A stretch of DNA of 64,000 nt. Source: a virus. Positions within the stretch are counted from its first letter, which is position 1. Each line of letters begins with the position of its first letter. The stretch is taken from IMG/VR virus record IMGVR_UViG_3300015371_000021, positions 8,190-72,189 of that record, one strand, 5' to 3'. The position numbers and the translations under genes were made by a program. The notes under the pieces are model-generated. The model was not told the origin of the DNA. It searched no databases and saw only the letters and a program-made list of their open reading frames with translations. Shown here piece by piece: positions 31,544 through 64,000 of the stretch.

Positions 31544-32380
31544 CTAGTAAGGGATTATTTCCAGGCGACGTGCCGGCGGCGTTTCCAGGAAGGCCGGTGG
31601 AGAGTTTATCACCATAGCCGCTATATCGATACGTCCAGGGTTATAAAGCGGCGCCAACGGGTCTCCATAAAGCCGCCGGATTTCGGTGAGTTTTAGCGCA
31701 CGGTTCCAAATTGCGACGTTCGCTATGCCGCCCGCGTGCCAGGCATTCGCCAGGCCGTTGTCTCCGAACCTCAGTGATTGCGTTGGCTGCGTGTTGTTGA
31801 CCGTAGTGACGGCGGCGGCGGTGGCCCCTTGCTGGCCATTGACGTAAACCGTGACGTTAGCGCCGTCGAACAAGCCGACCACGTGGTTCCACGCATTCTC
31901 GATCATTAAGACCGAGCTGTCGCTGGTGCTGAAATGTGCGCCGCCGCTGGCGGAGACCCCGAATTTCGGGGCGCCTGTGACATTGTCGCTGTAGGACAGC
32001 GCGAACTGATCAGACGTCGTGGCGGCGTCGTTTAGAGCGGTGACCGGGAAGCTCCAATGTGCTGGCGCGAAATTCGGCCGCAGCCACACCGATACCGTTA
32101 TTGCGTTGAGCGGCAGTTTGACTGAGTAATTTGTGTTTATAGAATTGGTCGAACCATTAGACGGGAAGTTGAGAGTGCGGCCCCACTTGCTGCCACCGCG
32201 ATTGACGGTGCCGGTCCAGGTTGCCGATGTCTTGCAGCGGCCACAGGTGTCAACAACTTTGGTGCCAACGTTCTCGTTCAAAGGAAAGAAGTGCAGCAGT
32301 CCTTTGGCTAGACTGTCATTCCAGTCGATCGTGGCGGCGCCACTATCCTGATGGACTGCAAGTCGGTTTATGTGGTCCAT
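31544..32380 (-). CDS. LamG-like jelly-roll domain protein
   Basis: ITVSVWL...WNHVVGLFDG...VYVNG...IANVAIWNRAL..EI..LY. Confidence 0.9.
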   Translation of the reverse strand: MDHINRLAVHQDSGAATIDWNDSLAKGLLHFFPLNENVGTKVVDTCGRCKTSATWTGTVNRGGSKWGRTLNFPSNGSTNSINTNYSVKLPLNAITVSVWLRPNFAPAHWSFPVTALNDAATTSDQFALSYSDNVTGAPKFGVSASGGAHFSTSDSSVLMIENAWNHVVGLFDGANVTVYVNGQQGATAAAVTTVNNTQPTQSLRFGDNGLANAWHAGGIANVAIWNRALKLTEIRRLYGDPLAPLYNPGRIDIAAMVINSPPAFLETPPARRLEIIPY

Positions 32381-32869
32381 CTAGATCACCGTGTACGTGA
32401 CGCCGGTGTACGTCTTCTGATGATTGCCCTCCGTGGCGTCGAGCGCCTGCCCTGTAAAGTTCTGTAACACGAAGCCCCACTTTAACGGCAGCACTCCACC
32501 AAAGAAACTTGCGACAGAGATCACCGTTCGGTATGTGACGCTCACAGCTGGACAGCTCAGTACTACCGGCCCCTTCATATTGGACGGGCTGTCTATCGTC
32601 ACCGAGGCATTTGTCCCAACCGCTTCCGCCGACGATGCGCTGTAGTTGGTGCCGTCTTCAGACCCGTATATATAAATGTAACATGCCTTATCATTTGCGA
32701 GCGCGGATGAGCTAGTCTTGACCGCTATCGTCAATAAAGCGTCGTCGAATAGATTGCTCGTGTTGTCAACTACGGCGCTACCTTGTCCCACAGTAGACGA
32801 CGAAGCCTTAGAGGCCAAAGTACACGAAATGGCCGTGGAAGTTCCAAAAGCAATCTTGACTACTGCCAT
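32381..32869 (-). CDS. Virion accessory protein
   Basis: Beta-rich; YIYGSEDGTNY motif. Confidence 0.7.
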   Translation of the reverse strand: MAVVKIAFGTSTAISCTLASKASSSTVGQGSAVVDNTSNLFDDALLTIAVKTSSSALANDKACYIYIYGSEDGTNYSASSAEAVGTNASVTIDSPSNMKGPVVLSCPAVSVTYRTVISVASFFGGVLPLKWGFVLQNFTGQALDATEGNHQKTYTGVTYTVI

Positions 32870-33223
32870 CTACGCCACCGTCACCTGGGTCCACGATGTA
32901 CCGTCATAGAACGAGCCATAACGATTCCACGGGTTTTGGTTGTTAACCGCCTGCTGCAACGTGGTGAATCGCGTCACCAAAGCATTGCTGATCGCAGGAA
33001 ACCCTGTCCCCACCGCGAAAGAAAATTCCTCCACCCTCTCCAGCACCTGCCCGGCCTGCAATGCGGTTAGTTCTCCAGCAGACAGACCGATGACGCGGCT
33101 CTTGAATGTCGCGTCGGCGTTGAACTGTTGACGGGCCGCAGGCACGGTCAGCCAGAAACATACGTTGTACCGCAAATCGCTGGGCAAACCAGGCTGATCA
33201 AGAATGATGATCTGTCGCGCCAA
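32870..33223 (-). CDS. Hypothetical virion protein
   Basis: Ends YDGTSW, typical of fibre-associated proteins. Confidence 0.65.
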   Translation of the reverse strand: MARQIIILDQPGLPSDLRYNVCFWLTVPAARQQFNADATFKSRVIGLSAGELTALQAGQVLERVEEFSFAVGTGFPAISNALVTRFTTLQQAVNNQNPWNRYGSFYDGTSWTQVTVA

Positions 33224-39933: not shown

Positions 39934-42668
39934 CCGGTGCGTCCGTTGATAAAGGCGGTGATGGTGCCAGTCGTCTTGGTAAAGCAGGTCGTTGCACTGG
40001 AAACCACCGCAGTGATGCCGGTGGAGAACACCTGCGGTGGCCCCGGGGAATAGTCGATCTGTGCGTAGCTCGACGCCGGTAGCGGCACGCACGCGAGTGG
40101 CGTGACTGCGCCATCTGCTGGTGACGTGGTGGAATTCAGCACCAGCAGGAACCCAGCAGTCGATGTCAGGTTGGTCGCGTAGACGCTGTACAGATTGCCA
40201 GCGCTGGCCTTCAGCACGTGATTATTCTCAGCCGCACTGGAAACCACAGAAGTAATACCGGCGGCGGAGGCGGACGTCGGCGCGACGGTGGTCTGCACCG
40301 GCGTCATGCCGGACGAGCCCTGCACCGTCCACGGACCAGACGCCTGAGTGACGGCGCCGATCGTGTTCGAGCCCGGCGGCAACTGGGTATTCACGGTGAC
40401 CAGCGTGTTGCCGCCGCTGTCACACTGCACCGGCGAAGAGCGGGTGGAGGTAATAGCGGTCGGCGCGGTGTTGAACTGACAGCCGGTGAGAATGGCGTTG
40501 GCCGGGGACACCGCGTTCTGCCCGGCAAAGTCCAGCACCGCCCCACCATTGCCGAGCAGGTTCACCGTCGCCTTCAGATTAGCCGCAGTCGCCTGCGCCA
40601 CGGTGGCATTCAGGTTGGCCGCGGTGGATTGGCTGACTACGAGCGCCGTGCCGTTGGCACCGGTGTTGGCGAGCGACACCTGCAGGGGAGTGGTGGACGT
40701 GCCGACCTCGGTGCCGGAGGCGTCACGCAGGTTGGAAAACAGCGCCCGCTGCGCCGTCACCTGAAACGCACCCTGCTGCCCGGTAGTGAGTGCGTTGGAG
40801 GTGGCGGTGGTCTGGAAAAAGCCGCCCACCAGGGTCTGCGGCGAGGTGCTGGCGGTGAAGGTACTCTTGTCCGCCGCTGTCGTGGTCGTGCAGCCGCTGT
40901 CGCAGACGATGTGCAGATTGGTGCCGGTGGCCTGGGACACCGTCGCATTCAAGTTCGACGCCGTCGACTGGCTTACCTGGATCGGCGTCATTGAGGCGAT
41001 GCCCTGGACTGTCATCACGCCGGTGTCTGACGTCCCGGCAGTGCCTGCTCCCGTCGCCTGCGTCTTTAGGTTCGACGCGGTGGCCTGGCTGACATTGGCA
41101 TTGAGGTTCGCCGCCGTGCTCTGCACCACAGTCGCGTTCAAGTTGGCCGCTGTGCTCTGCGCCGCCGTCACCAGCACCGCCGTGCCATTGGCTGCCGTGT
41201 TAGCCAGTGAGACCTGTACCGGCGTGGTCGAAGTGCCGATTTCCGTGCCCGACGCGTTGCGCAGGTTGGTGAACAGCGCGCGATTCGCGGTGACCTGAAA
41301 CGCGCCCATCTGGCCGGTGGTCAGCGCGTTGTTTGTCGCGGTGGTCTGAAACACGCCACCGATTGGCGTCTGCGAGGTGGTGCTGAATGTAAAGGTCGAC
41401 GCGTCGGCCGGTGCGGTCGAGGACGAGCAACCGCTGTCGCAGGAAACATGCAGGCTGGCGCCAGACGACTGTGCCACGGTGACCGCCGTCCCCGAGGCGA
41501 TGCCCTGGATGGTCTGCACGCCGGTGTCAGGCGTGCCTGCAGTACCCGCGCCGGTGACCTTAGCGTTCAGGTTCGCTGCGGTACTCTGCACCACGGTCGC
41601 GTTAAGATTCCCGGCCGTCGCCTGCGACACCTGCACCGGCGTCATTGACGCGATGCCTTGGACCGTCAGCACGCCCGCGTTGGCCGTGCCGGCGGTGCCG
41701 GCACCGATAACGGTCGCGTTCAGATTGGCCGCCGCGGCCTGACTGACGGTGACCGGTGTGGCGTTGGAAGCAGTGTTGGCAAGCGAGACCTGCAGCGGCA
41801 CAGCAGCGACCCCGGCCTCAGCCCCCGTTGCGTTGCGCAGGTTGACATGCAGTGCGCGGTTAATCGTCGCTTGCACCGCGCCCATCTGACCCGAGGTCAA
41901 TGGATTGGACGTCGCCGTCGTCTGATATACCGCGCCGATCGGCGTCTGCGATGACGAGCCGAAGGTAAATGCCCCCTGATCGGCCGGCGCTCCGGTAGCC
42001 GAGCAGCCACTATCGCAGACCATGTGCAAATTGGACCCGGTGCCTTGGACAGCGGTGACCGTGCCGGATACCGTCGCCAGCAAATTGCCGGCGCTGGCAT
42101 TGTTGACGATCAGCGGGGTCATCCCCGAGATGCCTTGCACCGTCTGCACCCCGGTGTCAGCGGTGCCTGCGGTGCCGGCGCCAGTCGCCTGCGTCTTCAA
42201 ATTCGCCGCGGTGGATTGGATTGCCGTCACAGACCCGCCGGCTTGCACCGAGACAGAGACCGGGGTCATGCCCGCGATACCCTGGACGGTCATCACGCCA
42301 GCATTCGCCGTACCCGCTGCCCCAGCACCGACCACGGTCGCGTTCAGATTTGCCGCCGTCGCGTTGTTGACGATCACCGGCGTCATCGACGCGATGCCCT
42401 GAATCGTCAGCACGCCAGCGTCAGCAGTTCCTGCGGTACCCTTACCGGTCGCGAGCACAGAGAGTCCAAGCGTCGCAGAAACCGGCGCGCAGGTGTTCGG
42501 ATCAGTCGCGTCGCAGGTAATACCGCGGTTAGAGAACTGGCCGCCGATATTGGCCTTCACGTTCATCTGCTGATTGGCGCCGTCGGCGTCTTTGATCTTC
42601 AGTCCGTCGGCGTGCGCCGGGACCGATACCAAGAGCAGGAGAAGAGCAACGATCCATCGCGCCATCAC
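39930..42668 (-). CDS. Signal-peptide-bearing repetitive fibre/adhesin-like protein
   Basis: MMARWIVALLLLLVSVPAHA-D leader; GAGTAGT.D.GV.TVQGIASMTP and QATAANLNATV repeats; three CDSGC blocks. Confidence 0.8.
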   Translation of the reverse strand: MMARWIVALLLLLVSVPAHADGLKIKDADGANQQMNVKANIGGQFSNRGITCDATDPNTCAPVSATLGLSVLATGKGTAGTADAGVLTIQGIASMTPVIVNNATAANLNATVVGAGAAGTANAGVMTVQGIAGMTPVSVSVQAGGSVTAIQSTAANLKTQATGAGTAGTADTGVQTVQGISGMTPLIVNNASAGNLLATVSGTVTAVQGTGSNLHMVCDSGCSATGAPADQGAFTFGSSSQTPIGAVYQTTATSNPLTSGQMGAVQATINRALHVNLRNATGAEAGVAAVPLQVSLANTASNATPVTVSQAAAANLNATVIGAGTAGTANAGVLTVQGIASMTPVQVSQATAGNLNATVVQSTAANLNAKVTGAGTAGTPDTGVQTIQGIASGTAVTVAQSSGASLHVSCDSGCSSSTAPADASTFTFSTTSQTPIGGVFQTTATNNALTTGQMGAFQVTANRALFTNLRNASGTEIGTSTTPVQVSLANTAANGTAVLVTAAQSTAANLNATVVQSTAANLNANVSQATASNLKTQATGAGTAGTSDTGVMTVQGIASMTPIQVSQSTASNLNATVSQATGTNLHIVCDSGCTTTTAADKSTFTASTSPQTLVGGFFQTTATSNALTTGQQGAFQVTAQRALFSNLRDASGTEVGTSTTPLQVSLANTGANGTALVVSQSTAANLNATVAQATAANLKATVNLLGNGGAVLDFAGQNAVSPANAILTGCQFNTAPTAITSTRSSPVQCDSGGNTLVTVNTQLPPGSNTIGAVTQASGPWTVQGSSGMTPVQTTVAPTSASAAGITSVVSSAAENNHVLKASAGNLYSVYATNLTSTAGFLLVLNSTTSPADGAVTPLACVPLPASSYAQIDYSPGPPQVFSTGITAVVSSATTCFTKTTGTITAFINGRTG

Positions 42669-43294
42669 GAGATCACCGGTAGGTATTGCGTATTGTCTGG
42701 GTCGGAGAAATCCAACTGCCCTTGCTGCCCACCCGGAGGCACCGGCGTCGTTCCAGGTCCCGCGTCGACCATGATCGGGACGCCCTGATCGTCGGTGATG
42801 ATGTTGCCCTGATCGTCGGTGAGATACGCGAACAGCTCAGCCGGCGGTGGTGGCGGGGGTGGTGGTGGCGCCGCCTGTCCCCGGTCAAGCATGATCGGCT
42901 TGCCGAGATCATCGGTGATGACGTTCCCCAGGTCGTCGGTCAGGAAGTCAAACAGCGGTTCGACGAACGGCGGCACCGCCTCGAATGGCTCGAATGGGAA
43001 GAACGGCGGCGGCGCGGGGCCTGCCTGCTGCGTCACATAACCAGGGCGCGGGTGCTTCAGTGGCCGCGGATCAGGCGGGATGACGATCGGTCGTAGGTGA
43101 TGGTGCGGCCGGTCCTCACAGGTCCCGCACACCAGAATGCGCAGATTAGCCAATTGCGGGCCGCGAAAGTCGTGCTGCCAGCGCAGATCACCGAGCCAAT
43201 AGCGATGGTTGCAGCGGTCGCAGTAGCCGATCGGCTGCGGCTTATTGAGGTCAGCATAGTTGCGGGTGAGGCCCTTACCCATAGTAGGCCGCAA
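42665..43294 (-). CDS. Virion protein with Zn-ribbon and LTDD.GN repeats
   Basis: CDRC...CGTC.D.P...PPDP.P...PRP; two LTDDxGNxITDDxG repeats joined by poly-Pro. Confidence 0.75.
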   Translation of the reverse strand: MRPTMGKGLTRNYADLNKPQPIGYCDRCNHRYWLGDLRWQHDFRGPQLANLRILVCGTCEDRPHHHLRPIVIPPDPRPLKHPRPGYVTQQAGPAPPPFFPFEPFEAVPPFVEPLFDFLTDDLGNVITDDLGKPIMLDRGQAAPPPPPPPPPAELFAYLTDDQGNIITDDQGVPIMVDAGPGTTPVPPGGQQGQLDFSDPDNTQYLPVIS

Positions 43295-48195: not shown

Positions 48196-48945
48196 TTGCT
48201 ACAAGACAAACGATACCTGCACGCGATAGAAGCGCGCATGTCAGATGACCTCATTCCGCTAACCGATCAGGGCCGCAACAACGCCGAGCTGGGCGAAACC
48301 GTGCGGCGCCTATCCGAACAGGCGACCTGGAAGGACAGCCGTACTGTCATTGTCAGCCCCTGCGGCACGTCCGTGCCAATGCGGACGGTAGCCGCCTGGA
48401 CCTCGTTGCAGAGACCGCCCAACTCGGCCTGCGCGCGGCTGTTCACCCAGAATCTGGAGGTCGGCCAAGCTTACACCCAGATGGTCGAGGACATCCTGGG
48501 CAGTCCAACGCTACGTGATCTGCCGTTCATGTGCACCGCCGAGCACGACAACCTGCCACCGCCGCGCGGGCTAATCGATCTGATCGGCCAGCTGCACAAC
48601 CACCCAGAGTTATCCGCAGTCTCCGGACTATACTTTCTCAAGAGCAGGGATGGATTTGCGCACATCTACGGCGAGCCAGGCCAGGACCATCTCCGCCCAA
48701 TGCTGCCAGACCCGAACGGCGGACTGGTCGAATGCCGCGCCATTGCCATGGGGTTTGCCGTTTTCCGGCTCGATATGTTCCGTGACGACCGGCTACGGCG
48801 CCCATGGTTTCTCAGCGGACAGCACCCAGTCGGCACCCAAGACCTATATTTCTGGGACGACGCAGCAAGGTTCGGCTACCGCTGCGCGGTCGACTGCAGT
48901 GTCCGGGTTGGGCACTTAGATGTGGACAGCGGGATAGTTTGGTAA
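48196..48945 (+). CDS. GT-A fold (GT2-like) glycosyltransferase
   Basis: EHD at the DxD position, VSGLYF, MGFAVFR..MF, PWF, QDLYF, VD.SVRVGH. Confidence 0.75.
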   Translation: MLQDKRYLHAIEARMSDDLIPLTDQGRNNAELGETVRRLSEQATWKDSRTVIVSPCGTSVPMRTVAAWTSLQRPPNSACARLFTQNLEVGQAYTQMVEDILGSPTLRDLPFMCTAEHDNLPPPRGLIDLIGQLHNHPELSAVSGLYFLKSRDGFAHIYGEPGQDHLRPMLPDPNGGLVECRAIAMGFAVFRLDMFRDDRLRRPWFLSGQHPVGTQDLYFWDDAARFGYRCAVDCSVRVGHLDVDSGIVW

Positions 48946-52606: not shown

Positions 52607-52800
52607 CAGGCGGCCTCTTGTGGCTGTGGCTTATCGAATTCTGCGATAACCCAATCGAACGCCGTAATGTAACCCCTAAGATAATGCAAAGCCTCCAGGT
52701 TGTTCGCCCGTAACAGCCCGGCATACGCGTCGGCTCTTTGCTGCTCGATCGCCCGTCGCACCTCCCGCAACTCATCAGTGCCGATGATATGCAGCGTCAT
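52606..52800 (-). CDS. Small helical head-module protein
   Basis: YLRGYI motif; coupled on both sides. Confidence 0.65.
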   Translation of the reverse strand: MTLHIIGTDELREVRRAIEQQRADAYAGLLRANNLEALHYLRGYITAFDWVIAEFDKPQPQEAA

Positions 52801-53462
52801 GCGATACGCTTCCGCTTGGGCTTGAAGCCGCCCTCGCCATATTCCTCCATCTTCTCAAGGCGCCCCGGCCCCGAGCCAGCACCGCCCTCCATCTTAACTA
52901 TCCCGCCACCCCGCGCCCGCATCATCCCCGGCGGCGCGGCCCCAGGCGGCAACATCGGCGGCCGTTGCAAAGCCGCGGGCGGGGGGCCAGCCATCGGCCC
53001 GCCCGGAGGCATCGGCCCCCCAGGCGGTAGTCCGGGCGGGCCAGCACCAGGGGGCATCCCACCCATCGGGCTAGCCCCAGGCGGCATACCGCCAGGAGGC
53101 GCCCCAGGCGCCATCGGCGGCCGCGGCGCTCCCATCATCGGTGGCCGAACAGGCATCGGCGGCGCACCGCCTCCACCCTGTGGAGCGACGATCACGTTGA
53201 CCTTGGTATGACGCGGCCCGCGCGACTTGGCCTTGCCGCCGCGGGCGCGACCAACGTGGTGCTTGCCAGACTCACCATCGACCATACCGCCCGAGGCAAG
53301 CTTGGTTTTCGGCTCGCCTTTGTGCAGGTGGCTTTCGTGCTTGTGCACCGCCATCCCGCCGATGGCACCACCACGAGCAAATCCCGCGTTGCCGGTGCGC
53401 GAGATCAGCGAACTCGCCTTACCACGACGGTCGCTGCACTCAGATGCATAGGGATGTGCCAT
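52797..53462 (-). CDS. Basic, Pro/Gly/Met-rich protein with xAxGG motifs
   Basis: FARGG, LASGG, RARGG x2; PPG-rich tract. Confidence 0.75.
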   Translation of the reverse strand: MAHPYASECSDRRGKASSLISRTGNAGFARGGAIGGMAVHKHESHLHKGEPKTKLASGGMVDGESGKHHVGRARGGKAKSRGPRHTKVNVIVAPQGGGGAPPMPVRPPMMGAPRPPMAPGAPPGGMPPGASPMGGMPPGAGPPGLPPGGPMPPGGPMAGPPPAALQRPPMLPPGAAPPGMMRARGGGIVKMEGGAGSGPGRLEKMEEYGEGGFKPKRKRIA

Positions 53463-53795: not shown

Positions 53796-56105
53796 CTAAA
53801 TCCCCTCTCCGCCAAACGAGCGCCGCTGCCCGCCTTGGCCGCCGCCTTGCCCAGGGGGCAGCCGCTGCGCTGCCATCTGCTGGTCGTGCGCCATGCGGGT
53901 GTGCTCTAGCGCCTGGTTCGCCTGCATCTCCTGGGCATGCAGCTGGTGATCCATCTGCGCCTGCTGGACGTCGTGCACGTGCTGCCGCTCGGCGAGCTGC
54001 TGATCGTGCGCCAGCTTCAGCGTCTCGATCTGCATCTTCTGCGCGCCGAGGGCCATCTTGTTCTGCCGCTCCGCCGCATCGTTGGCCGCCTTACGTTGGC
54101 TATCGCGCTCACGCTGTTGCATGTCCGCCAGCTGCGACGCGGCCTTGCGCTGGCTGTCCTGGGTCTTCTGCTGGTTGGTCATCTCGGTCGTCTTGATCTT
54201 GGCTGCCGCCGCCGCCGCCCCGGGATCAGTCCCCGGTGCCTGTGGCGGCGGCTGTACCACGATCTTGTCGGCATCCGAGATACCGACCATCCGCATGATA
54301 CGCTTCAAGATATCGTCCATATCGAGACGCGGCATGAACTGCGGCATCGAACTCAGGGTCGCGAGCGCAGTGGCCAGCATAGTGCGATGCACCTGGGATG
54401 GCACGTTGGGATCGGACGCCGGCACCAGGTTCAGATTGGCGAACTCGGACGCTGCCGCCCAGGCTCGCTTAGGGTTGTCCAGCACCTCAGGAAACGACTT
54501 TGGGTCCTCCATAAACAGCTCGCGGAGCATTACCAGCTCCTGCCGCATCGCTTCGTGCAAGCGCTTATGGATCGCGCTCATCACCATGGTCTTTTCTTCG
54601 AGCATGGCCATAATCGTACCAACTGGAGTGTTGGCCCGCCCTTCACCAACCTCCAACTGGGCCGCCGCGCCAACACGCTGTGCCGCTTGTTGGATCAGCT
54701 CGTAAAACTGGATAGCGACCGGGGATAGGTCCTTATACGGCAGCGCCATCACCGCATCGCGCAGGTTGGTGATAGTGGCCGGAACCGCGACGTCGACGAA
54801 CTCGCCCGGCCCTGGATTTAGATCATTACGCTCGGTGCGAGCGTCCTTGATCTTCAGCCCGCCCGGAAACGTCGCGAACAGCATGCAATCGGTCAGCTGC
54901 CGCACGATACCGGTCAGTGTCGCGACGTTATTGCCCTGTAGGTGCAAAAAGCCATACGCCAGAAAGCCGAAGCCAGGTACCATTTGATAGTGAACGCAGC
55001 GGCGCTTACGGGCGAATTTTTTGTCACCCTGCTTCCAGAACCGCTCAATACGCAAAATCTCCCGGCTCGACCTTTCCAACGTCACCCGATAGGGCAACGG
55101 CAGGCCACGCTTGGCGCCCTTCTCACGCAGCCCATACATCGCTAGATCGAGGTCGGTCACCGTCGCATAGACCTCGAATGGCTGGTCCTGCGGGCGCTGC
55201 CCGTGCGGCGTGATGCCGGCTGTCTGGTCTAGCTTGGCCCTAGCCGGGTCGGTGGACGGCAATGGAATGCCCAGAGCGCAATCGCGCCACAACCCATAAT
55301 GCTGCCGCCGCCGCATCTCCACGGGAGAAACGATGCTGCGCATAGTCCAGCGCGTGGCGGTCTCCAGGCTAGTCGCTTCCTCGGAGACAATCAGGTCCTC
55401 GACCCCCACCGTATCGACCCGGGGCCGGCGCCTGACCGGACAGTGGTAGCCGTAGCGAAACAGATTCCCGCTATAAAACAGCGAAAACAGCCCCCGATCG
55501 AGATCAGGGACGTATTCCGGCATTCCTTGAGTGAGAGCCAGGTTGAAGTCCTGTTCGAAGTCGGCGGCCAGCTGGTCATCGGCTTCCGCCGACCCTGCCA
55601 CTTCCTGAACTTTAGCGGGGCCGCCAGCCGGCAGCAGCTCGCCACGCGCCTGTGCCTGCGCCTTGACCACCGACTCTAACATCGTCGTGTCTTTTAGCTG
55701 ACTGACCTTGCGGCCGGTCGTCGCGGCCTTGCTGTCGCCAGAGTGGCCGGGCCACTCAGTACTCAAACCCAGCGCGTCGATGCCGGCGCGGTAGTTGTCG
55801 ATGAACCCCTGCCGCGAGCGAATGTCGGTCTCGATGCCGTCGAGCAGATCGTGCGCGATCAGGGAAAGCGAGCCTTCCAGCTCCCGCCGCTCCGCCAGAT
55901 TCTCGTCGAACCCCATATCGCGCGCGGGGGCGTCGTCCGGCGCAACCTCGCGCACCTTGACGCTACCGTCGTCCCCGACCTCGACGATCGTGGAGCCTGG
56001 TGGCGGCTTATCCTCCGGTATCCACCCCGACCATGGCTCGACAGGCTCCCGCGGCGGAGGAGCCTGCCGAATAGTGCCGTCAAAAGCATTGTCTAACGGT
56101 GGCAT
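53796..56105 (-). CDS. Portal protein
   Basis: FDENLAE...ELLPAGGPAK...PGFGF..YGF..L...RQL.D...PGEFVDV...PVGT..A..E...SAIHKRLH; Q-rich barrel tail. Confidence 0.92.
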   Translation of the reverse strand: MPPLDNAFDGTIRQAPPPREPVEPWSGWIPEDKPPPGSTIVEVGDDGSVKVREVAPDDAPARDMGFDENLAERRELEGSLSLIAHDLLDGIETDIRSRQGFIDNYRAGIDALGLSTEWPGHSGDSKAATTGRKVSQLKDTTMLESVVKAQAQARGELLPAGGPAKVQEVAGSAEADDQLAADFEQDFNLALTQGMPEYVPDLDRGLFSLFYSGNLFRYGYHCPVRRRPRVDTVGVEDLIVSEEATSLETATRWTMRSIVSPVEMRRRQHYGLWRDCALGIPLPSTDPARAKLDQTAGITPHGQRPQDQPFEVYATVTDLDLAMYGLREKGAKRGLPLPYRVTLERSSREILRIERFWKQGDKKFARKRRCVHYQMVPGFGFLAYGFLHLQGNNVATLTGIVRQLTDCMLFATFPGGLKIKDARTERNDLNPGPGEFVDVAVPATITNLRDAVMALPYKDLSPVAIQFYELIQQAAQRVGAAAQLEVGEGRANTPVGTIMAMLEEKTMVMSAIHKRLHEAMRQELVMLRELFMEDPKSFPEVLDNPKRAWAAASEFANLNLVPASDPNVPSQVHRTMLATALATLSSMPQFMPRLDMDDILKRIMRMVGISDADKIVVQPPPQAPGTDPGAAAAAAKIKTTEMTNQQKTQDSQRKAASQLADMQQRERDSQRKAANDAAERQNKMALGAQKMQIETLKLAHDQQLAERQHVHDVQQAQMDHQLHAQEMQANQALEHTRMAHDQQMAAQRLPPGQGGGQGGQRRSFGGEGI

Positions 56106-56942: not shown

Positions 56943-57123
56943 CTTCCTCGTAAATACGCCGGATGTTTAGCCCACCCGCCTCGCAATTGATCAGCAAGTC
57001 CGGATCGCACTGCAGGTGGTGGATCACCTGATAAAGTAACGCCACCAGGCCCGTCTTGCCGACGTAAGTCTCGACCGTAACGTCACGTTCATCTACTTCC
57101 ACAAATTCGACAACAAAGTCCAT
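56935..57123 (-). CDS. Hypothetical protein
   Basis: TAATG-coupled ORF. Confidence 0.55.
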   Translation of the reverse strand: MDFVVEFVEVDERDVTVETYVGKTGLVALLYQVIHHLQCDPDLLINCEAGGLNIRRIYEEGD

Positions 57124-57668
57124 TACCACAGCTCCCGCATTGCCCGCGCCGGATCGGCCGTAAACCAACTCAGCACCGAATGCCGGGCGCCCCCATCGAT
57201 CGGATAGACCTGGTGCTTGAACTCACGTCCCGAAGGAAACGCTAGCAGCATTCCAGGCGTCGGCACCATCTCGATGCCCAGCTCAGGAAAGGCGAACTCG
57301 CCACCTGTATAGTTATCATCGAGGTAAAGATTACAGGTGTGTGACCGCCACGGCGTATGGTTCGGGCTGCCGTCGTCGAGGCAGTTGTCGCAATGCGCCA
57401 CGTGACTGTCGCCAGTATAGTTGCTGGTCAGCACGCAGTATTCCATTCGCACCCAGTCCGCAAAATGCTCGCGCAACAACGCAGTAGCCTGCGTCTGGAA
57501 CTCGCGAATAATCGTCCGCCCCGCGGCCGGCATCTCCCATGCAGGTATCTCAACGCGATTCGCGGCTAAAGCACCGATGCGAAACTCCGCCGCCTGGCTC
57601 AACATATAGACCAAATCGACACACTTCTCCGGCGCGAGAAAGTTAGGGACTATCAGAATGCCGTTCAT
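57123..57668 (-). CDS. 2OG-Fe(II) oxygenase, prolyl-hydroxylase-like
   Basis: HCD...LYL..NYTGGEF.FP...P..GML..FPS...H.V..I..G.R.S...WF: complete HxD...H triad and RxS. Confidence 0.88.
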   Translation of the reverse strand: MNGILIVPNFLAPEKCVDLVYMLSQAAEFRIGALAANRVEIPAWEMPAAGRTIIREFQTQATALLREHFADWVRMEYCVLTSNYTGDSHVAHCDNCLDDGSPNHTPWRSHTCNLYLDDNYTGGEFAFPELGIEMVPTPGMLLAFPSGREFKHQVYPIDGGARHSVLSWFTADPARAMRELW

Positions 57669-57769
57669 GGCCTATTCACCCACCAATCCACCAGCCAGAC
57701 CACGACAAACACCACCGCGCCACACGCCACGGTCAGCAGAATCAGCGCACAAAGTTCGATCCAGGTCAT
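57665..57769 (-). CDS. Small TM peptide
   Basis: MTWIELCALILLTVACGAVVFVVVWLVDWWVNRP; ATGA-coupled on both sides. Confidence 0.55.
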   Translation of the reverse strand: MTWIELCALILLTVACGAVVFVVVWLVDWWVNRP

Positions 57770-59478
57770 ACACCGTATTGCTCGGCGATCGTCAGCTGCC
57801 GTCCGTGCCACACCTTGCGCCGGGCTTCCTCGCGATCGACTTCCTCCGCCAGCCGGATTAGCCCTGAGCGCCGCAGATACCCGAGCGCCCCCGATACCGT
57901 ATCGGTCAGGTCCTTCCACCGCCCCTTGGGAAACGCTGACGCCTCGGCGATCACCATCTCCGCCCATGTCGTGTCTGGCGCGTAGACCATGCCGTTCTCG
58001 AACAACACCGAAACCGCCCGTAGCCGCGCCACCTTGTCGCCGCGCACATCATCCAGCGCGATCGAGCACTCACCCGGCTCCATCAGGCGCAACAACTCCT
58101 GCTTGGCCCACTCGCCACCCGCCTTGTTCTCGATTACCACGACGTCCAACTGCCGCCGCCGCACGGTCTCCAGCATCTTCAGCGCCAGCCCGCGCAGGGT
58201 CGGGCGGTCGCGCCAGGCGCCAGTCATGGCGATCTTCGGCCGGTTCATGCTGTCGGCAAACACCCCCCAGGTGGTCATCGCGCACCAGGCGTTTTCCTTG
58301 TCATCCTGCGCAGAGAGCGCGGTATCGACGTAGCCGATCTGGTATTCCCACGCCGGCCACGCGGTCACGTAGGCCAGCCGGCCGTCCTCGCTCTTCGCCG
58401 GCCGCAGCCACTTCTCCTCTTCGTCATCCGGCGGCCAGCGCTGCCACCATTCGCTGCGTATGATACCGCCGCCACGTGGCGCCGGACGCTGCTGAAACTG
58501 CGCCGCCCAGGCGAACTCGCCCACCTGTTTCTGCTGCTTACCGCACCAGTCACTGTCAAACCGTACCGGCCATAGCGGCTCACCATCGTCGCGACGCCAG
58601 TCGGCGAACTTGTAACGGGTGCGCCCAAGCTCCTCACCCCAGGCGTTAATCCACCGCCCGCCGGACGCCGTCACGCAGCGCCGGTCAGCCTCGAACTCGC
58701 AGGGTAGGCAGAGGTGCACGATCTCGCCTCCCTCATTGTCCAACAAGAAACCCGCCAGGTCCGCCTCGCCCAGCCGCTGCATGATGATCACTTCGGCGCC
58801 CTGCGACGGGTCGTTCGATCGGGTGCGCCACACCTCATTGTAAGCTCTGACCTGGCTTTCGATTACCGCCTGGCTTTCCACCTGATCGGTCTTGTGCGGA
58901 TCATCCACAATGCGAATCAGCCCACCCTTACCCAGGCTTTCGGGGATACCAGTGCTGATGCGCGAACCACCCGCCTCGGTGTCGTACTGCCCAGCATTAT
59001 CGCGGTCGCCGCGGATGCGGCAGTGATCGCCCCAGCGATCCTGCCACCAGTTCGAGCCGATCAGACGGCGCGCAGTAACTGCATCCTCTTCGGCCTTCTT
59101 CGCGCCATAGCTCGCACACAGAAACCGCACCCCAGGCCCAACCAGCGGATTGTCTGGGTCGCGCTGCCGCGCCCAGGTCCAGGTCGGCCAGGCGATCGAC
59201 ACCGCACTCGTCTTACACATTCGCGGCGGGATGTTGATGATCAGCCGCCTAATTTCGCCGCGGCTGACCGCCTCCAGATGCTCGCAGATCGCCTCCAGAT
59301 GCTTCGAGCCACAAAACTCCGCTGGATCGAATTGCGGCCAGGCGCGCTGCAGATACGTGTAAAGCGAGGCTTCGCATTCACGCCGATCGCGCTCCAGATC
59401 GGCCCACTCTAAAGCGTCGATGGTCACCATCGGCGGAAGACCGATGTTTTCCAAAAAGTCTGCTAGCTCAGGAATCAT
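57766..59478 (-). CDS. terL: Terminase large subunit
   Basis: RRLIINIPPRMCKT (Walker A), IVDDPH (Walker B), IMQRL, QFQQRP, DTA, IENKAGG, DKVAR, FPKG..KDLTD. Confidence 0.95.
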   Translation of the reverse strand: MIPELADFLENIGLPPMVTIDALEWADLERDRRECEASLYTYLQRAWPQFDPAEFCGSKHLEAICEHLEAVSRGEIRRLIINIPPRMCKTSAVSIAWPTWTWARQRDPDNPLVGPGVRFLCASYGAKKAEEDAVTARRLIGSNWWQDRWGDHCRIRGDRDNAGQYDTEAGGSRISTGIPESLGKGGLIRIVDDPHKTDQVESQAVIESQVRAYNEVWRTRSNDPSQGAEVIIMQRLGEADLAGFLLDNEGGEIVHLCLPCEFEADRRCVTASGGRWINAWGEELGRTRYKFADWRRDDGEPLWPVRFDSDWCGKQQKQVGEFAWAAQFQQRPAPRGGGIIRSEWWQRWPPDDEEEKWLRPAKSEDGRLAYVTAWPAWEYQIGYVDTALSAQDDKENAWCAMTTWGVFADSMNRPKIAMTGAWRDRPTLRGLALKMLETVRRRQLDVVVIENKAGGEWAKQELLRLMEPGECSIALDDVRGDKVARLRAVSVLFENGMVYAPDTTWAEMVIAEASAFPKGRWKDLTDTVSGALGYLRRSGLIRLAEEVDREEARRKVWHGRQLTIAEQYGV

Positions 59479-60668
59479 CCAGTTAGGTTCTTTGAGCCGT
59501 CTTTCTGCCAAACATCGACCGAGTAGATTTGCAGCGGGTTTTTGCCTCCCGTTCCTAGGATCAACCGTGAATGCTGAATATCGATCACCGACATCCACGG
59601 GCATTGCGATGTATTTGGTGTGCTACCCCCTTTGTAGATATCCCACGTGTAGGTGGCACCGACCTGCTGCCGATCGAAGAAATTCTTAATGTAGCCCTTC
59701 GTGTTATTCGTCGCCGGCACCCACAGCCAGCCGTATTTGTGTCGCTGGCCCATGTTCGTGCCGGCCGGCAGATTACATTTGACGTTGACCCCCATATTGG
59801 CGTCGTTGAAGTCCTGACCGCCATACCAGTGATGTACCGCCGCGGCATACATCAGGTTTGAGTGGTCCATAAACTCGGACGCATCATACTCCAGGTTCTG
59901 ATTGTTGTTTAGCTGCGGCAGACCGTTATAACCGACGCTTTCAGCCGCATTCATCCACCACGCCGGCCAACCGGAATTGTCGTTTCCCCAGCCGGACGGC
60001 GGCGCATTCTCAATCAGCATGTCGACTTCAAAATACCCGCCGCCACCAAACGCGATGCCGGCAAAGCGACCATTGTCGCCGCCGTGATCGGTGCGCATGT
60101 GATCGTTGGCCGCATAGTTGCCATCGCCAGTAATGCGCACCCCGTAGCTGGTCTGCGTCACTCCCGAATGCGATATGAACCAGTTCTGCCCCAACGTCAC
60201 CGCTGGGCCAAAGGTACGCGTGTTGTAACCGACCGCGGCGGCCATCGACGGCGCGCCACTCGGCGGTGGTGCCGGTGGTGGCGCGACACCGGTCGGATCA
60301 GGACACGCCACCCAGTCGTCATCGCTATCGACCGGCCCGTCCTTCGGCGCATTCCACCAGTTCTTGTGCGCATTCTGCTGATAACATAAGCCACCTTTGG
60401 CGTAGAGCCGTTCGACCAGCGCGCCAGTGACCTTGCCGTCGCAATCGATCTTATAGCTACCCGCCGCCCCGACTAAACGGAACGTCCGATGCCGGCTATC
60501 TACCAGCGTCCCCGACGGATTGGTCACCTGCGTGCCGTCCGGCGATGGTGTCGCCGGCGGCGGTGGAGATGGGGGAGGTGGTGGCGCACCGTCAGCCACC
60601 ACAGTGCCACGCAACGTTTGTCCTGTGTTCAACGTGACGACGACGGTTCCAGTCAATGTTCCCGACAT
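59475..60668 (-). CDS. GH16-like protein with poly-Pro linkers and small accessory domain
   Basis: GGYFE...WPAWW...EYDASE...HKYGWLW; ExDxxE intact. Confidence 0.8.
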   Translation of the reverse strand: MSGTLTGTVVVTLNTGQTLRGTVVADGAPPPPPSPPPPATPSPDGTQVTNPSGTLVDSRHRTFRLVGAAGSYKIDCDGKVTGALVERLYAKGGLCYQQNAHKNWWNAPKDGPVDSDDDWVACPDPTGVAPPPAPPPSGAPSMAAAVGYNTRTFGPAVTLGQNWFISHSGVTQTSYGVRITGDGNYAANDHMRTDHGGDNGRFAGIAFGGGGYFEVDMLIENAPPSGWGNDNSGWPAWWMNAAESVGYNGLPQLNNNQNLEYDASEFMDHSNLMYAAAVHHWYGGQDFNDANMGVNVKCNLPAGTNMGQRHKYGWLWVPATNNTKGYIKNFFDRQQVGATYTWDIYKGGSTPNTSQCPWMSVIDIQHSRLILGTGGKNPLQIYSVDVWQKDGSKNLTG

Positions 60669-60679
60669 GAGTGTTCCCC

Positions 60680-63600
60680 TTATGGCGGCAGCGGTACGCC
60701 CACCCGAATGTTCGAGGCATCATTGCGCTGCCATACGGTGATTGTATATACAGTCAGCGCATTACCAGCGTTCGCCCCTATCAGCAGACGGCAATGCTGT
60801 AGATCGAAAATCGAAAACGGCGGACATCCGGCTTGTCCCGGCACCGTGCCGCCGCCATAGCGGTCCCAGGTATGCGTTCTCCCCACCTCGACGTTGTCAT
60901 AGAACAGCTTGGAATAGCCCTGAGTCGTCGCCGTCGCCGGCACCCACAACAGGCCGTACTTATGGCGCGCTCCAAATGTATTACTCCCTGGATTAGGCAC
61001 CGTAAGATTACCGTTCGGGAAACCGGCGGTCAGATCACTATAGTTGCCACCAGTGTACCAGTGGATAGGTCCGGTCGAAAACACGCTGTTCGACACCACC
61101 AGAAACTCAGCCATGTCGTATTCAAGATTCTGATTATTGGACAAGCTGGCGAGATTGTTATAGCCGACACTCTCCGCAGCATTCAGCCACCACGCTGGCC
61201 AACCAGGTCCGCCCTTACCAGACTCCGGCGGTGGATTGGCCATTGAAAAGTCAGCCTCAAAATACGCCCCGCCACCAAACGCCACGCCGCCGATATTACC
61301 ATTCGGCAACATATGATCACTCGCGATGTTCTCGTTGAAGTGATACACGTCCTGCGACAAGAATACTGAACCATCGCTGTTTTGACTCGCCGTCTGCTGC
61401 GACACGAACCAATTAGTACCCAATGTGATAGCCGGCCCATGTGTGCGCATGGTGTAGCCCACCGCAACCGCCTGCGGCGGTGCGCCACTCGACGGCGGGG
61501 GTGGCGGAGGCGTGGGCGGCGGTGCTGTCCCCAGATTCCCAGTCAAGATGACCACAGTTTCCGACGGCACTGAGATCGTCGCGAGCGAGGTCTGATTGCT
61601 GTTCGCCGGCACCGGTGAAGTAGGCGCGCCCGACGACGATTTACCAATCTCCCAGCGCGCCACCGTGCCAGAGAACCCCACACCACTTTGCGCCAGATTG
61701 ACCGTGCGATTGGTCGTCAGATTGTAGTTCACCAGCATGATCGCGCCAGTGTTCGTCGTCGGCTTCACCGCCACGATCGCCATGTCGGGGAACGTCGTCG
61801 ACGACGTAAACTCAGGCCCAAACACCGACTGGCCGGCCTTGCCAAGCACATAACCAAACGCACTGACCGCACTATTCGAGCCGCCCTGCGCAGGATTACC
61901 GACCGCCCCGATCACCCCCATGTTGTTGATGTTCTCAAGCGCCCCCACCTCGAACCCGGTGGTACCCTTAAAACATCCGAGCAAATACAAAGCGGCAAAC
62001 ACCCCGCCCATGTAATGCCCAGTCTCATTGGCGAACTCGCTCATATTCCAGTCGATGACACCCAGCGGAACGTTCGCCAACGGCGTCCCCACCAAAGCGT
62101 TGCGCTGCGTTGCCGACTTGCCAGAGTTGTAACCCTTCGGACCATAAGCAGTGGTCAAACTGTCGGCTATCGGCACGCCGACCGGCCCGTTAACCGGATT
62201 AACCGGAAAGTCCATCCACGGCACGCCGACATTAGGTGCCCGACCCGATCCAACCGCAGACGCGAAAGAGCTGTTAGCACCGAACCCCGGATTCCACTGC
62301 GCCGGTCCCCAAATCCGATAATTCGGATTGACCGCCTTGAGCGCATCGAAAATCGTATTGAAATAAGTATTGACCGTGCCCTGCGACTGGCCCTCGCCAT
62401 TACCGAGGCCACCGTCATCCATCCAGATCGAACCGATGGCAAAGTCCATAAACATCGCGCCGTAGCCATTATTATTCAGCCACGTCGCAAGGGTAGCGGC
62501 GCGTGATGCCAGCGTGCTCGCACTGCCGTCACCGATCTTATTGGCCACCCCCATGATTCCACGCACGCCAGGCTGCGAGAACCCGGCAATGAACGGCACC
62601 AGGTTGTTGATGTCGGTCATATCCCCAGCCGCAACCTTACGATCAAGCGCCCAATCTGAGTTGATCGAGATCAACGCCGGCTTAAGGAAGTTGTTTACCG
62701 TGGTGCGGAAAGTCGCGTTGGCAAAGTTCTGGCCAAAGATCGACGAACGAAAACCCCAGATCGTCTTTTGCAGCGTCTTGCCCGTACCCGTCGACCAGTC
62801 AACCGAGGCGTTCGCCCCAGGCGGCGGCGGGGGTGGGGTCGGAGGCGGCCCTGCCGGTGGGGGCGATGGCGGCGGTGGGGCAGGCCCCGTTCCGACAAAA
62901 AACACGTTCGAGGTCGCAGTAATCGCTGTGCGTGCCGCATCACGCACACTCACCACATACTGCCCCGCCGCCTGCGGTGGAGGCGGAGCAGGTGGAGGCG
63001 GCACCGGTACCGGCGGAGGCGGCGTCGGCGGAGGCGGCGTCGGTGGAGGCGGTGTCGGTGGTGGAGGTGTCGGTGGCGGCGGAGGCGAGCCGGGCGTAAA
63101 CGGCAGCACCGTATCAACGGTGCACTTATACAGATGCGCGTAGGCCGGCAAGCTAGACGGATTGGCGTTCGAGCTAAGCGGTCCATACCCCGTCTGACAC
63201 GCCGTCTTGTGATAAAATGGCCCCGCCCCCTGGAATTCACCACCAGGATTAGGAAAATCAACCACCAACGCTCGGTCGCGATAAAACTGCACACGCGACG
63301 ACGTCCAATTTACTCCCAACGTATGAATCTGTCGCGCATCATATCCGTCGTTCGACGTGATCTCGAAAGTCGCGCCGTTACCGGTGCACCCCTGCAGAGT
63401 GTGCTGCACCCCGGAACTGTCGGTCCAAATATAAAATAGAAATGCTTGCCACGATCGTCCTGCCGTCGGCGTCGTCAGTATCTGCACTTCCCAGATCAGC
63501 CCAGGCACCCGGTCGACCGCGACGGTAAACTCCCAATAGCCGTACTGCTGGGTAAAATTGCTCGGCGCGTTGAAGGTATCGATCAGACCCGACAGGAATT

Positions 63601-63796
63601 GCCGACCAGTGCCGCCATCGTCGGCACCCGCCGGCTTATTGATCAGCGCAAGATCGAGATGTCCGGGATAGGTGTAAATCTGATCGACGTAAGGCGACTG
63701 CGTGGTCCACCACGCGTTGCCACCGTCGTCATAGCTCTCACGGTTCCAAAGAGTGGAATTGAACGAAGTAAAATTGTCGATGAAAGTCTGTGCCAT
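60680..63796 (-). CDS. Multidomain protein: degenerate GH16 + poly-Pro + degenerate GH39-like barrel + GH16
   Basis: SGLIDT..FTQQYGYWE...HTLGVNWT...FYRD; LKAVNPNYRIWGP; C-terminal WPAWW...EYDMAE. Confidence 0.8.
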   Translation of the reverse strand: MAQTFIDNFTSFNSTLWNRESYDDGGNAWWTTQSPYVDQIYTYPGHLDLALINKPAGADDGGTGRQFLSGLIDTFNAPSNFTQQYGYWEFTVAVDRVPGLIWEVQILTTPTAGRSWQAFLFYIWTDSSGVQHTLQGCTGNGATFEITSNDGYDARQIHTLGVNWTSSRVQFYRDRALVVDFPNPGGEFQGAGPFYHKTACQTGYGPLSSNANPSSLPAYAHLYKCTVDTVLPFTPGSPPPPPTPPPPTPPPPTPPPPTPPPPVPVPPPPAPPPPQAAGQYVVSVRDAARTAITATSNVFFVGTGPAPPPPSPPPAGPPPTPPPPPPGANASVDWSTGTGKTLQKTIWGFRSSIFGQNFANATFRTTVNNFLKPALISINSDWALDRKVAAGDMTDINNLVPFIAGFSQPGVRGIMGVANKIGDGSASTLASRAATLATWLNNNGYGAMFMDFAIGSIWMDDGGLGNGEGQSQGTVNTYFNTIFDALKAVNPNYRIWGPAQWNPGFGANSSFASAVGSGRAPNVGVPWMDFPVNPVNGPVGVPIADSLTTAYGPKGYNSGKSATQRNALVGTPLANVPLGVIDWNMSEFANETGHYMGGVFAALYLLGCFKGTTGFEVGALENINNMGVIGAVGNPAQGGSNSAVSAFGYVLGKAGQSVFGPEFTSSTTFPDMAIVAVKPTTNTGAIMLVNYNLTTNRTVNLAQSGVGFSGTVARWEIGKSSSGAPTSPVPANSNQTSLATISVPSETVVILTGNLGTAPPPTPPPPPPSSGAPPQAVAVGYTMRTHGPAITLGTNWFVSQQTASQNSDGSVFLSQDVYHFNENIASDHMLPNGNIGGVAFGGGAYFEADFSMANPPPESGKGGPGWPAWWLNAAESVGYNNLASLSNNQNLEYDMAEFLVVSNSVFSTGPIHWYTGGNYSDLTAGFPNGNLTVPNPGSNTFGARHKYGLLWVPATATTQGYSKLFYDNVEVGRTHTWDRYGGGTVPGQAGCPPFSIFDLQHCRLLIGANAGNALTVYTITVWQRNDASNIRVGVPLPP
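62975..63088 (-). repeat. Poly-proline minisatellite (TPPPP)n
   Basis: 15-bp units such as GGCGGAGGCGGCGTC encoding SPPPPPTPPPPTPPPPTPPPPTPPPPVPVPPPPAPPPP. Confidence 0.9.
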
Positions 63797-63826: not shown

Positions 63827-64000
63827 TCACGGCGGCAGCGCCACGCCAACGCGGATGTTCCTGCTGTCGTCCCGCTGCCATACAGAGAAGGAATGCAGAG
63901 TAAAGGCATTTACGTTGGAGGTCCCCCACATAATTCGGCAGTGCTGCAGATCGATAATCGATCCAGGAGAGTTGTTCGCCTGACCCGGCGTGCTGCCGCC
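63827..64000 (-). CDS. Third GH16-like paralog (5'-partial)
   Basis: Hand-translated GGSTPGQANNSPGSIIDLQHCRIMWGT...SVWQRDDSRNIRVGVALPP matches the C-terminus of 60680-63796. Confidence 0.85.
   Translation of the reverse strand, partial: GGSTPGQANNSPGSIIDLQHCRIMWGTSNVNAFTLHSFSVWQRDDSRNIRVGVALPP

Follow-up and report, generated by a model that had tools for sequence, protein, structure and literature searches.

A P3H1-like prolyl hydroxylase homologue encoded near polyproline-linked glycanase-like proteins in a soil-type phage

RESULTS

An intact P3H1-like oxygenase

We analyzed a 64,000-nucleotide stretch of a viral genome (bases 8190-72189 of IMG/VR record IMGVR_UViG_3300015371_000021; hereafter, the window), focusing on a 181-aa Fe(II)- and 2-oxoglutarate (2OG)-dependent oxygenase gene, oxygenase 1 (57123-57668, minus strand), and on the proline-rich proteins encoded close to it. 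The enzyme is predicted to be intact and to resemble the catalytic domain of the animal prolyl 3-hydroxylase P3H1, and the proline-rich tracts appear to be linkers of glycan-acting phage appendage proteins. We tentatively propose, at somewhat less than an even chance, that oxygenase 1 is expressed late and acts on the phage's own glycanase fibers, hydroxylating their polyproline-II linkers. The parent record, G000, is 72,189 bp long, is rated 100% complete, and carries an identical 123-bp repeat at both ends. This high-G+C soil-type phage (~62% G+C) has a set of 82 open reading frames (ORFs) comprising 22,757 aa, of which 7.0% are proline. Coordinates below are those of the window unless prefixed otherwise.

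An earlier note, made from the sequence alone, had described a complete 2OG-Fe(II) oxygenase in a co-oriented run with terL (terminase large subunit) and genes bearing proline tracts, and had pointed to a likeness to animal prolyl 3-hydroxylases. Both observations held. Oxygenase 1 matched the Pfam family PF13640 (2OG-FeII_Oxy_3) with an E value of 1.3e-10 and 42.5 bits against a cut-off of 27, and the PHROG family phrog_61 at 8e-14. Human P3H1 (8k0e) was the top PDB sequence in a phmmer search (E 1.1e-8), with an alignment that joined oxygenase residues 85-178 to P3H1 residues 580-685 and paired exactly the motifs that the note had named. A profile built from 61 homologues again placed P3H1 first, at an E value of 4e-26 across all 181 residues, followed by a PKHD-type hydroxylase (1.1e-12), a B. 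anthracis prolyl 4-hydroxylase (P4H; 4.5e-12), PHD2 and the P4H of PBCV-1 (both ~3e-11; PBCV-1, 3.3e-11), and PPHD (4e-9).

The AlphaFold model of oxygenase 1 had a predicted local distance difference test score (pLDDT) of 96.6. Searching with this model, Foldseek returned at least 500 matches at E ≤ 0.001, with prolyl hydroxylases of the double-stranded beta-helix fold at the top; P3H1 came first (template modeling [TM] score 0.83) and PBCV-1 P4H followed (TM 0.74). By VIA-align, P3H1 (Z 18.6; root-mean-square deviation 1.9 over 170 residues), PBCV-1 P4H (Z 18.2), and the Pseudomonas EF-Tu P4H (4iw3; Z 18.1) were tied. The comparison against prolyl hydroxylases that the earlier note had called for therefore put P3H1 first by profile and by Foldseek, but its Z score did not stand apart from those of other prolyl hydroxylases.

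Among the 61 homologues, D94, H152, and R162 were invariant and H92 nearly so, and the HxD...H triad of oxygenase 1 aligned to the triad region of P3H1. H92, D94, and H152 are the predicted metal triad, and R162 is the predicted 2OG-binding residue. Because the active-site residues are conserved and prolyl-hydroxylase matches lead the searches, profile and model comparisons together place oxygenase 1, predicted to be an intact Fe(II)- and 2OG-dependent dioxygenase, in the branch of the peptidyl-prolyl hydroxylases, most like P3H1. The fold alone does not settle its substrate.

The family is large, with 1790 representatives at E ≤ 0.001 that are mostly stand-alone proteins of 170-220 aa. Close relatives were few: seven at the same threshold in a word-indexed search. 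The BFVD database held many phage structural look-alikes, some auto-named procollagen-proline 3-dioxygenase, and a phage collection yielded only eight weak cyanophage or marine-virus records. The clade of oxygenase 1 was rare in viral contigs, with three loci found by close-family patterns and five by a wider pattern; the close-family patterns found no relative in the genome contig collection. Among 22 long homologues scanned for fusions, four carried PF11397 with two PF13640 domains, and five carried DUF6065 (PF19541) with PF13640. We take PF11397 to be the family of Gnt1, a hydroxyproline (Hyp)-N-acetylglucosamine (GlcNAc) transferase. Fusion partners of some further homologues were TP_methylase or a combination of GT9 and methyltransferase domains.

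Polyproline tracts as linkers of glycanase-like proteins

Runs of at least four prolines occurred 18 times in seven ORFs of G000, where ~0.5 PPPP starts were expected, so that poly-Pro lies far above chance. Fourteen of the 18 runs fell within three glycanase-like genes, including 10 in a 1038-aa protein and two in a 397-aa protein. The 1038-aa protein (60680-63796, minus strand) is laid out as a GH16-like N-domain, a (TPPPP)n linker (62960-63109), a short segment, a second proline linker (62801-62896), a GH39-like middle domain, a third proline linker (61469-61537), and a GH16-like C-domain. A 15-nt tandem repeat of 4.8 copies codes for the (TPPPP)n tract (63011-63082, minus strand; Tandem Repeats Finder, 89% matches, score 95). 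The N-domain is 66-73% identical to proteins of a second phage, G001 (described below), and the domains of the 1038-aa protein correspond to separate G001 genes at 43-66% identity in six-frame comparison and up to 73% by BLASTP. The ESM Atlas called residues 325-770 as GH39 at 0.96. Since a PDB sequence search of this middle domain gave nothing significant (a GH39 xylosidase at E 2.5, and recA repeats with no single stretch passing), the GH39-like label is a lead from the ESM Atlas alone.

The 397-aa protein (59475-60668, minus strand) comprises a short N-terminal beta segment, a proline linker (60531-60599), a small domain, a second proline linker (60243-60302), and a GH16-like C-domain. This last domain, of ~256 aa, is shared with the C-terminus of the 1038-aa protein at 47% identity. 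Its ExDxxE motif (E260, D262, and E265) was invariant in 13 sequences, and its profile matched a GH16 kappa-carrageenase at E 0.0029. The model of the 397-aa protein had a pLDDT of 69.5 overall and 70-95 across the C-domain, with both proline linkers among the segments below 50. All of its ten best Foldseek PDB matches were GH16 enzymes or GH16-fold Crh transglycosylases, topped by GH16 glucanases at 3.4e-7. Neither protein matched PF00722 at E ≤ 0.01, and we therefore call the C-domains GH16-like rather than members of GH16; two longer homologues (P0008 and P0011) did match PF00722. No tblastn match to the 397-aa protein was found in the phage collection.

A third GH16-like gene enters the window by its 3' end (63827-64000, minus strand) and continues at G000:1-1716. 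Read across the 123-bp terminal repeat, it encodes a 588-aa product with two P8 linkers, of the same family as P0164, and it stops at ~63827, 30 nt ahead of the 1038-aa gene.

At the linker positions, homologues carry poly-Pro, fn3 modules, or Ser/Gly-rich stretches. Because the same positions vary so freely, we read the proline tracts as linkers. Together, the ExDxxE motif, the GH16 structural matches, and the placement of the G001 counterparts in a tail-fiber module support the earlier proposal of glycan-acting appendages, with the 1038-aa and 397-aa proteins as predicted modular appendage proteins and the (T/S)PPPP tracts as their putative interdomain linkers. The comparison with extensins fared less well. 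The PPPP runs of the 1038-aa protein are confined to residues 230-279, 301-332, and 754-776, stretches of 23-50 residues that lie between globular domains of enzymes and do not form the chief body of the protein, and we rejected an extensin identity. Collagen-like repeats were likewise rejected as a substrate: a search of G000 and G001 for runs of at least five G-X-Y units (X and Y non-Gly) returned only one, 15 residues long, in a 1403-aa protein of G000.

Poly-Pro had also been reported in three other ORFs. This was correct for 42665-43294, which holds a P9 run; the other two, 22996-27207 (PAPPAP type) and 52797-53462 (PPG/PPM type), are rich in proline but have no run longer than PPP. The 209-aa product of 42665-43294 (minus strand) has a Cys-rich segment resembling a zinc ribbon at its N-terminus and carries two copies of the unit LTDD.GN.ITDD.G.PIM.D, with the P9 run between them. 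The 52797-53462 gene (minus strand), just downstream of the portal gene, encodes a 221-aa Pro/Gly/Met-rich protein with 17.6% Pro and a basic C-terminus, which might serve as a scaffold or an internal protein and which is also a conceivable hydroxylase substrate.

The GH16-like domain is not restricted to viruses. We found it at 47 loci in soil-type metagenome-assembled genomes (MAGs), six of them with a PPPP run, and its closest bacterial homologues (38-40% identity) were from Acetobacteraceae/Rhodopila. As a side observation, this family (FGGGGYFE … ExDxxE … YGxLWVPAT), which had no Pfam match here, is widespread among soil MAGs, including those of Acetobacteraceae, Verrucomicrobia, Acidobacteria, and Capsulimonadaceae, and in many cases the domain follows an N-terminus that looks like a signal sequence or that of a lipoprotein.

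Two oxygenase genes bracket the glycanase block

The minus-strand run in the window, a late region of packaging and appendage genes, consists of the 1038-aa gene, the 397-aa gene, terL (57766-59604; phrog_38, E 2.7e-68, residues 56-587), oxygenase 1, small ORFs, and the portal gene (53796-56105), with terL sitting between the glycanase genes and oxygenase 1. Judging from shared orientation and tight packing, the run may be co-transcribed; a promoter and terminator scan found no more sites than in shuffled sequence. As listed, terL starts inside the 397-aa gene, with an overlap of 130 nt (59475-59604). Because of this overlap, and because the PHROG match begins at residue 56, the true start is probably further downstream. 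No terS gene was identified near terL.

Just outside the window lies a second oxygenase gene, oxygenase 2 (G000:3697-4245, minus strand), whose 182-aa product matches PF13640 at 3.1e-16, resembles PKHD/PiuC, and shows no similarity to oxygenase 1 by BLAST. Immediately downstream of it comes a pectate-lyase-like gene (L021 2603-3730; PF12708, E 1.1e-13), which is followed by a 201-aa gene and the third GH16-like gene. When the record is read as circular, the same-strand order is oxygenase 2, the pectate-lyase-like gene, the 201-aa gene, the three glycanase genes, terL, and oxygenase 1, and two PF13640 genes bracket the glycanase block.

A second phage with both features

The oxygenase and the linker-bearing glycanases recur together in G001, a 77-kb myovirus-like record that is 93% complete and has baseplate wedge and hub genes. 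By BLASTP at E ≤ 1e-5, 12 of the 82 G000 ORFs matched G001, and neither terL, portal, nor capsid was among them. The matches at 49% identity or more were the oxygenase (56%), the 1038-aa and 397-aa glycanases, a Laminin_G three-gene cluster (63-74%), and a 313-aa protein (8547-9488). In the window this cluster, a Laminin_G_3 protein gene (PF13385, E 2.2e-21) with two small genes, occupies 31544-33223 (minus strand) in the context of a host-recognition module; its counterpart is at G001 66894-69933. The (TPPPP)n linkers of the two phages are near-identical. In G001 the glycanase genes stand between baseplate and tail-fiber genes, and the oxygenase gene closes that module. Because unrelated structural backbones share a small mosaic set of genes, exchange among phages of one host is suggested.

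Oxygenases and (TPPPP)n linkers across viral contigs

To survey the association more widely, we scanned viral contigs for DNA coding three consecutive TPPPP units, which gave 40 loci on 39 contigs. Contig L119 was left out, and sets of 39 include G000. A parallel survey of the GH16-like domain gave 42 loci in 28 records; the 28 control records were this set minus G001, plus L002, a relative found through terL. PF13640 was found in 7 of 38 (TPPPP)3 records (6 above the cut-off) vs 1 of 28 controls. PF11397 was found in 4/39 vs 0/28, and DUF6065 in 7/39 vs 0/28. With G000 and G001 removed, any of the three families was present in 8 of 37 records vs 1 of 28 controls (one-sided Fisher p 0.038). 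In many negative (TPPPP)3 records the tract falls in a short frame, which may not be a real gene. Where the tract lay in a stop-to-stop frame of at least 180 aa, 7 of 17 records were positive; this filter was chosen post hoc and is not counted as a test.

At least two oxygenase lineages have PF13640 genes within 1-3 kb of (TPPPP)n genes and in the same orientation. In G057, a low-G+C fragment (L143 3017-16418, minus strand), one strand encodes a 1922-aa Peptidase_S74 tail fiber, a 245-aa (TPPPP)n protein, a 146-aa protein, PF11397 (1.3e-37), GT2, a 368-aa PF13640 protein, and a 1146-aa cytidylyltransferase-like protein. This set resembles a complete candidate cassette for hydroxyproline glycosylation. 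In G044 and the related G036, one strand encodes an fn3-(TPPPP)n protein, two small proteins, PF13640, and DUF6065. The G044 gene order recurs in G065 beside an SU10 adaptor gene, and since their oxygenases are 58% identical, we counted the two as one oxygenase lineage. Finally, G039, G049, and G052, from a lineage of 0.35 G+C, have a (TPPPP)n-fn3 protein gene ~2 kb from DUF6065 and ~4 kb from PF11397. The same-strand proximity and the PF11397 fusions point to phage-encoded substrates for these oxygenases.

The nearest homologues of oxygenase 1 outside G001, at 46% identity, were in L004/L009, L005, and L008, records that are only 39-43% complete. They belong to a DUF6065-oxygenase-oxygenase cluster, after which come genes for a beta-helix tail protein and a sulfotransferase. 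The oxygenase gene lay in a late or structural region in each of the three close lineages for which context was available. The terL-based relative L002, a record 28% complete, had neither the oxygenase nor PPPP runs.

Several observations were made alongside. DUF6065, present in L005, G044, and G065, recurs as a neighbor or fusion partner of the oxygenases (L005 8702-10555, L149 842-2162, and L152 2840-4082) and has no PDB sequence match at E ≤ 1. L005 also carries a low-affinity iron permease gene (7268-7636; PF04120, E 3.3e-46) near its two Fe-dependent oxygenase genes, and its sulfotransferase-like gene (12863-13426) comes after the beta-helix tail protein.

Other features of the genome

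G000 looks podovirus-like, with an SU10-type adaptor, a tail fiber with a Peptidase_S74 chaperone, a 1511-aa internal SLT-domain protein, a portal, and terL. No near-identical DNA was found in the phage collection. At 29786-30760 (minus strand) lies a gene for a 324-aa protein with ~5 copies of a ~40-residue unit (…TTLDRW.APL.TPPAPKR.L…FSWHVST.PE…) and no family match.

DISCUSSION

On the reading that we favor, oxygenase 1 would act late in infection in the host cytoplasm, using O2 and 2-oxoglutarate, with iron held by H92, D94, and H152 and 2OG by R162, and would hydroxylate prolines in the polyproline-II linkers of the three glycanases. Oxygenase 2, encoded at the other end of the block, may hydroxylate the same linkers. 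The modification could stiffen the exposed tethers or raise their resistance to proteases, on enzymes that would work in a polysaccharide-rich cell envelope. Substrate, timing, and benefit are the parts that we infer here from homology and gene context.

A number of results weigh against linker hydroxylation. Oxygenase 1 is not adjacent to the (TPPPP)n tract, being separated from it by one gene (terL) and ~5.4 kb. G000 and G001 probably share a host, so that their common genes represent one event at most, and a common host alone could explain them. In the (TPPPP)3 survey, collapsing related records reduced the counts to ~5/27 vs 1/21 (p 0.16), which is not significant; of the records at least 90% complete, again minus G000 and G001, one of eight was positive (G044); and the control records differ from the (TPPPP)3 set in habitat and G+C. 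The co-occurrence foreseen in the earlier note appeared in G001 and in the (TPPPP)3 cassettes but was not general. G001 was the only one of 28 GH16-like records with a P3H1-like oxygenase (27/28 had none; 1/8 among records at least 90% complete), and any PF13640 occurred in only one of the 27 others. P7-P9 linkers were present without the oxygenase in G007 (100% complete), G010 (92%), G008, and G009, so such linkers can function unmodified. The 46% lineage had no PPPP run or Pro-rich window within ~10 kb, and under a loose criterion (at least 6 Pro in 12 residues) 3 of 6 oxygenase loci vs 16 of 26 control loci were positive, which is no enrichment. The absence of PF11397 from G000 and the compatibility of the fold ranking with small-molecule enzymes, both taken up below, count on the same side.

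The main rival is that the oxygenase and the linkers are unrelated neighbors, with a host protein hydroxylated (for example, a translation factor or ribosomal protein) and the tracts left unmodified. Bacterial PPHD hydroxylates EF-Tu, and the EF-Tu prolyl hydroxylase 4iw3 ties with P3H1 structurally; phages with common host-recognition genes would also be expected to share host-directed genes. The GH16-like records that lack the oxygenase and the homologue lineage that lacks a Pro-rich neighbor fit this explanation too, and a passage in PMC9301287 states that the role of viral P4H genes "remains cryptic." Set against these points, the family matches P3H1 (4e-26) far better in sequence than it does PPHD (4e-9), the gene lies in late or structural regions in the three close lineages with context, and both the same-strand proximity to (TPPPP)n genes of fiber regions and the fusions to putative Hyp-GlcNAc transferases are recurrent. 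We consider a host target rather unlikely.

We regard as improbable that the substrate is not a protein at all, being instead a small molecule, or DNA or RNA bases as with AlkB and Tet/JBP. DNA modification came up as a candidate through a match of oxygenase 1 to phrog_2297, annotated "DNA endonuclease" (2e-10), and the homologues fused to TP_methylase or to GT9 plus methyltransferase would also suit a non-protein target. In structural comparison, the oxygenases ranking fourth and fifth by VIA-align (6n1f and PolD; Z 17.4 and 16.6) have non-protein or unknown substrates, so that small-molecule enzymes are compatible with the fold ranking. However, peptidyl-prolyl hydroxylases account for all of the top three structural matches, and in the search of the PDB with the 61-homologue profile, prolyl hydroxylases filled the top, Tet appeared at only 4e-3, and AlkB was absent at E ≤ 0.01. 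The weak Tet score and the absence of AlkB led us to rank DNA modification low.

A further step, in which the linker hydroxyprolines are O-glycosylated, draws on the cassettes described above. PF11397 and GT2 stand between the (TPPPP)n and PF13640 genes of G057, PF11397 is near (TPPPP)n-fn3 genes in G039, G049, and G052, and PF11397-PF13640 fusion proteins exist. For G000, the earlier note had named a GT-A enzyme as the possible transferase. This gene (48196-48945, plus strand) encodes a 249-aa protein that fell into phage clusters of the ESM Atlas, some with GT2 in 25-49% of members; we treat the GT-A/GT2-like label only as a lead. The protein had no Pfam or PHROG match at E ≤ 0.001, no homologue in G001, and no similarity to the transferases of G057 (E 1.4 and 0.049), and its gene lies 8 kb away on the opposite strand, adjoining a DNA methylase. 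PF11397 had no match in the whole 72-kb G000 genome or in G001, and neither did DUF6065. Sugar addition to the linkers in this phage is therefore unsupported, and we think it very improbable that the 48196-48945 protein glycosylates them.

Equally doubtful is a different residue (Lys, Asp, or Asn) or a different phage structural protein as the target, such as a fiber or tailspike or the 52797-53462 protein: two homologues in L005 are directly upstream of a beta-helix tail protein without a Pro-rich tract, oxygenase 2 is directly upstream of the pectate-lyase-like protein, and lysyl hydroxylases have the same fold (Z 15.6 and 14.4), but LH3 matched the profile at only 1e-4 vs 4e-26 for P3H1, and no specific candidate site can be named.

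Hydroxylation of the phage's own linkers would have partial precedents. Oxygenase 1 has the same HxD...H triad, Arg, and surrounding motifs as human P3H1/leprecan (8k0e/8k0m). It differs in being a bare 181-aa catalytic core that matches residues 470-684 of the 736-residue P3H1 chain; since the match is limited to these residues, the rest of P3H1, including the large N-terminal non-catalytic region, has no counterpart in it. The phage enzyme also lacks the CRTAP and PPIB partners seen in the matched PDB entries, and beyond the single 15-residue G-X-Y run G000 offers no collagen-type substrate.

PBCV-1 P4H (vCPH, 5c5t) is likewise a virus-encoded, stand-alone P4H-type enzyme of similar size. 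Its reported substrates are Pro-rich repeat peptides from the virus's own genes, and we propose the same logic for the G000 phage. PBCV-1 is, however, a eukaryotic giant virus, its enzyme is a much weaker sequence match than P3H1, and its proposed substrates are repeat proteins rather than glycanase linkers.

Bacterial modular cellulases and xylanases, such as CenA and Cex of Cellulomonas fimi, have Pro/Thr-rich linkers between catalytic and other modules, and these extended tethers in glycan-degrading enzymes resemble those of the G000 proteins, which differ in being phage appendage proteins. Linkers of the CenA/Cex type are O-glycosylated on Thr/Ser in the native host; to our knowledge, Pro hydroxylation has not been described for them.

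The Skp1 pathway of Dictyostelium and Toxoplasma offers a model for hydroxylation followed by glycosylation: passages in PMC3515798 and PMC11570480 describe a cytoplasmic P4H (PhyA) followed by the Hyp-GlcNAc transferase Gnt1. The placement of PF11397 beside PF13640 and (TPPPP)n in G057, and near the tracts in G039, G049, and G052, resembles this pathway. G000 departs from it in having no PF11397, and its targets would be many contiguous linker prolines rather than one regulatory proline.

Among phages, genes for PHROG 61 oxygenases occur in cyanophages and other marine phages; PMC12774648 describes these enzymes as widespread in marine phages and as similar in structure to human EGLN3. Oxygenase 1 belongs to the same family but to a rare clade, found here in a high-G+C soil-type phage and paired with glycanase fibers. 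Literature searches, with most subscription journals outside their coverage, found no experimental paper on phage prolyl hydroxylation or on hydroxyproline in fibers. The enzyme family and viral P4Hs are known already, and a phage hydroxylating its own fiber linkers was not found in the literature searched. G000 is distinguished by its P3H1-like clade, by two bracketing oxygenases, and by candidate substrates that are glycanases rather than plain fibers.

More broadly, many tailed-phage lineages might tailor the Pro-rich linkers of their receptor-binding or depolymerase fibers with their own prolyl hydroxylases, some adding a Skp1-type Hyp-GlcNAc transferase, with G000 as a transferase-less variant in which two PF13640 proteins would serve the (TPPPP)n-linked glycanase fibers. 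Virions would then carry a hydroxyproline modification, in some cases with glycan, of a eukaryote-like kind for which we found no published description. We offer this as a possibility distinctly below an even chance; were it so, oxygenase 1 would be the closest known relative of the animal P3H catalytic domain in the prokaryote world.

Among the accessory genes of phages that still lack an explanation, those for P4H-like 2OG oxygenases rank with the most common. The polyproline linkers give one of them a defined candidate substrate, making its role testable by a simple peptide assay. If linker hydroxylation proves false, the locus comprises an ordinary accessory oxygenase next to linker-rich enzymes that are ordinary too. 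If it is true, phages encode close stand-alone relatives of the animal P3H catalytic domain, the modification would be relevant to engineering stable phage depolymerases, and hydroxyproline chemistry would extend from eukaryotes and giant viruses to the virions of bacteriophages.

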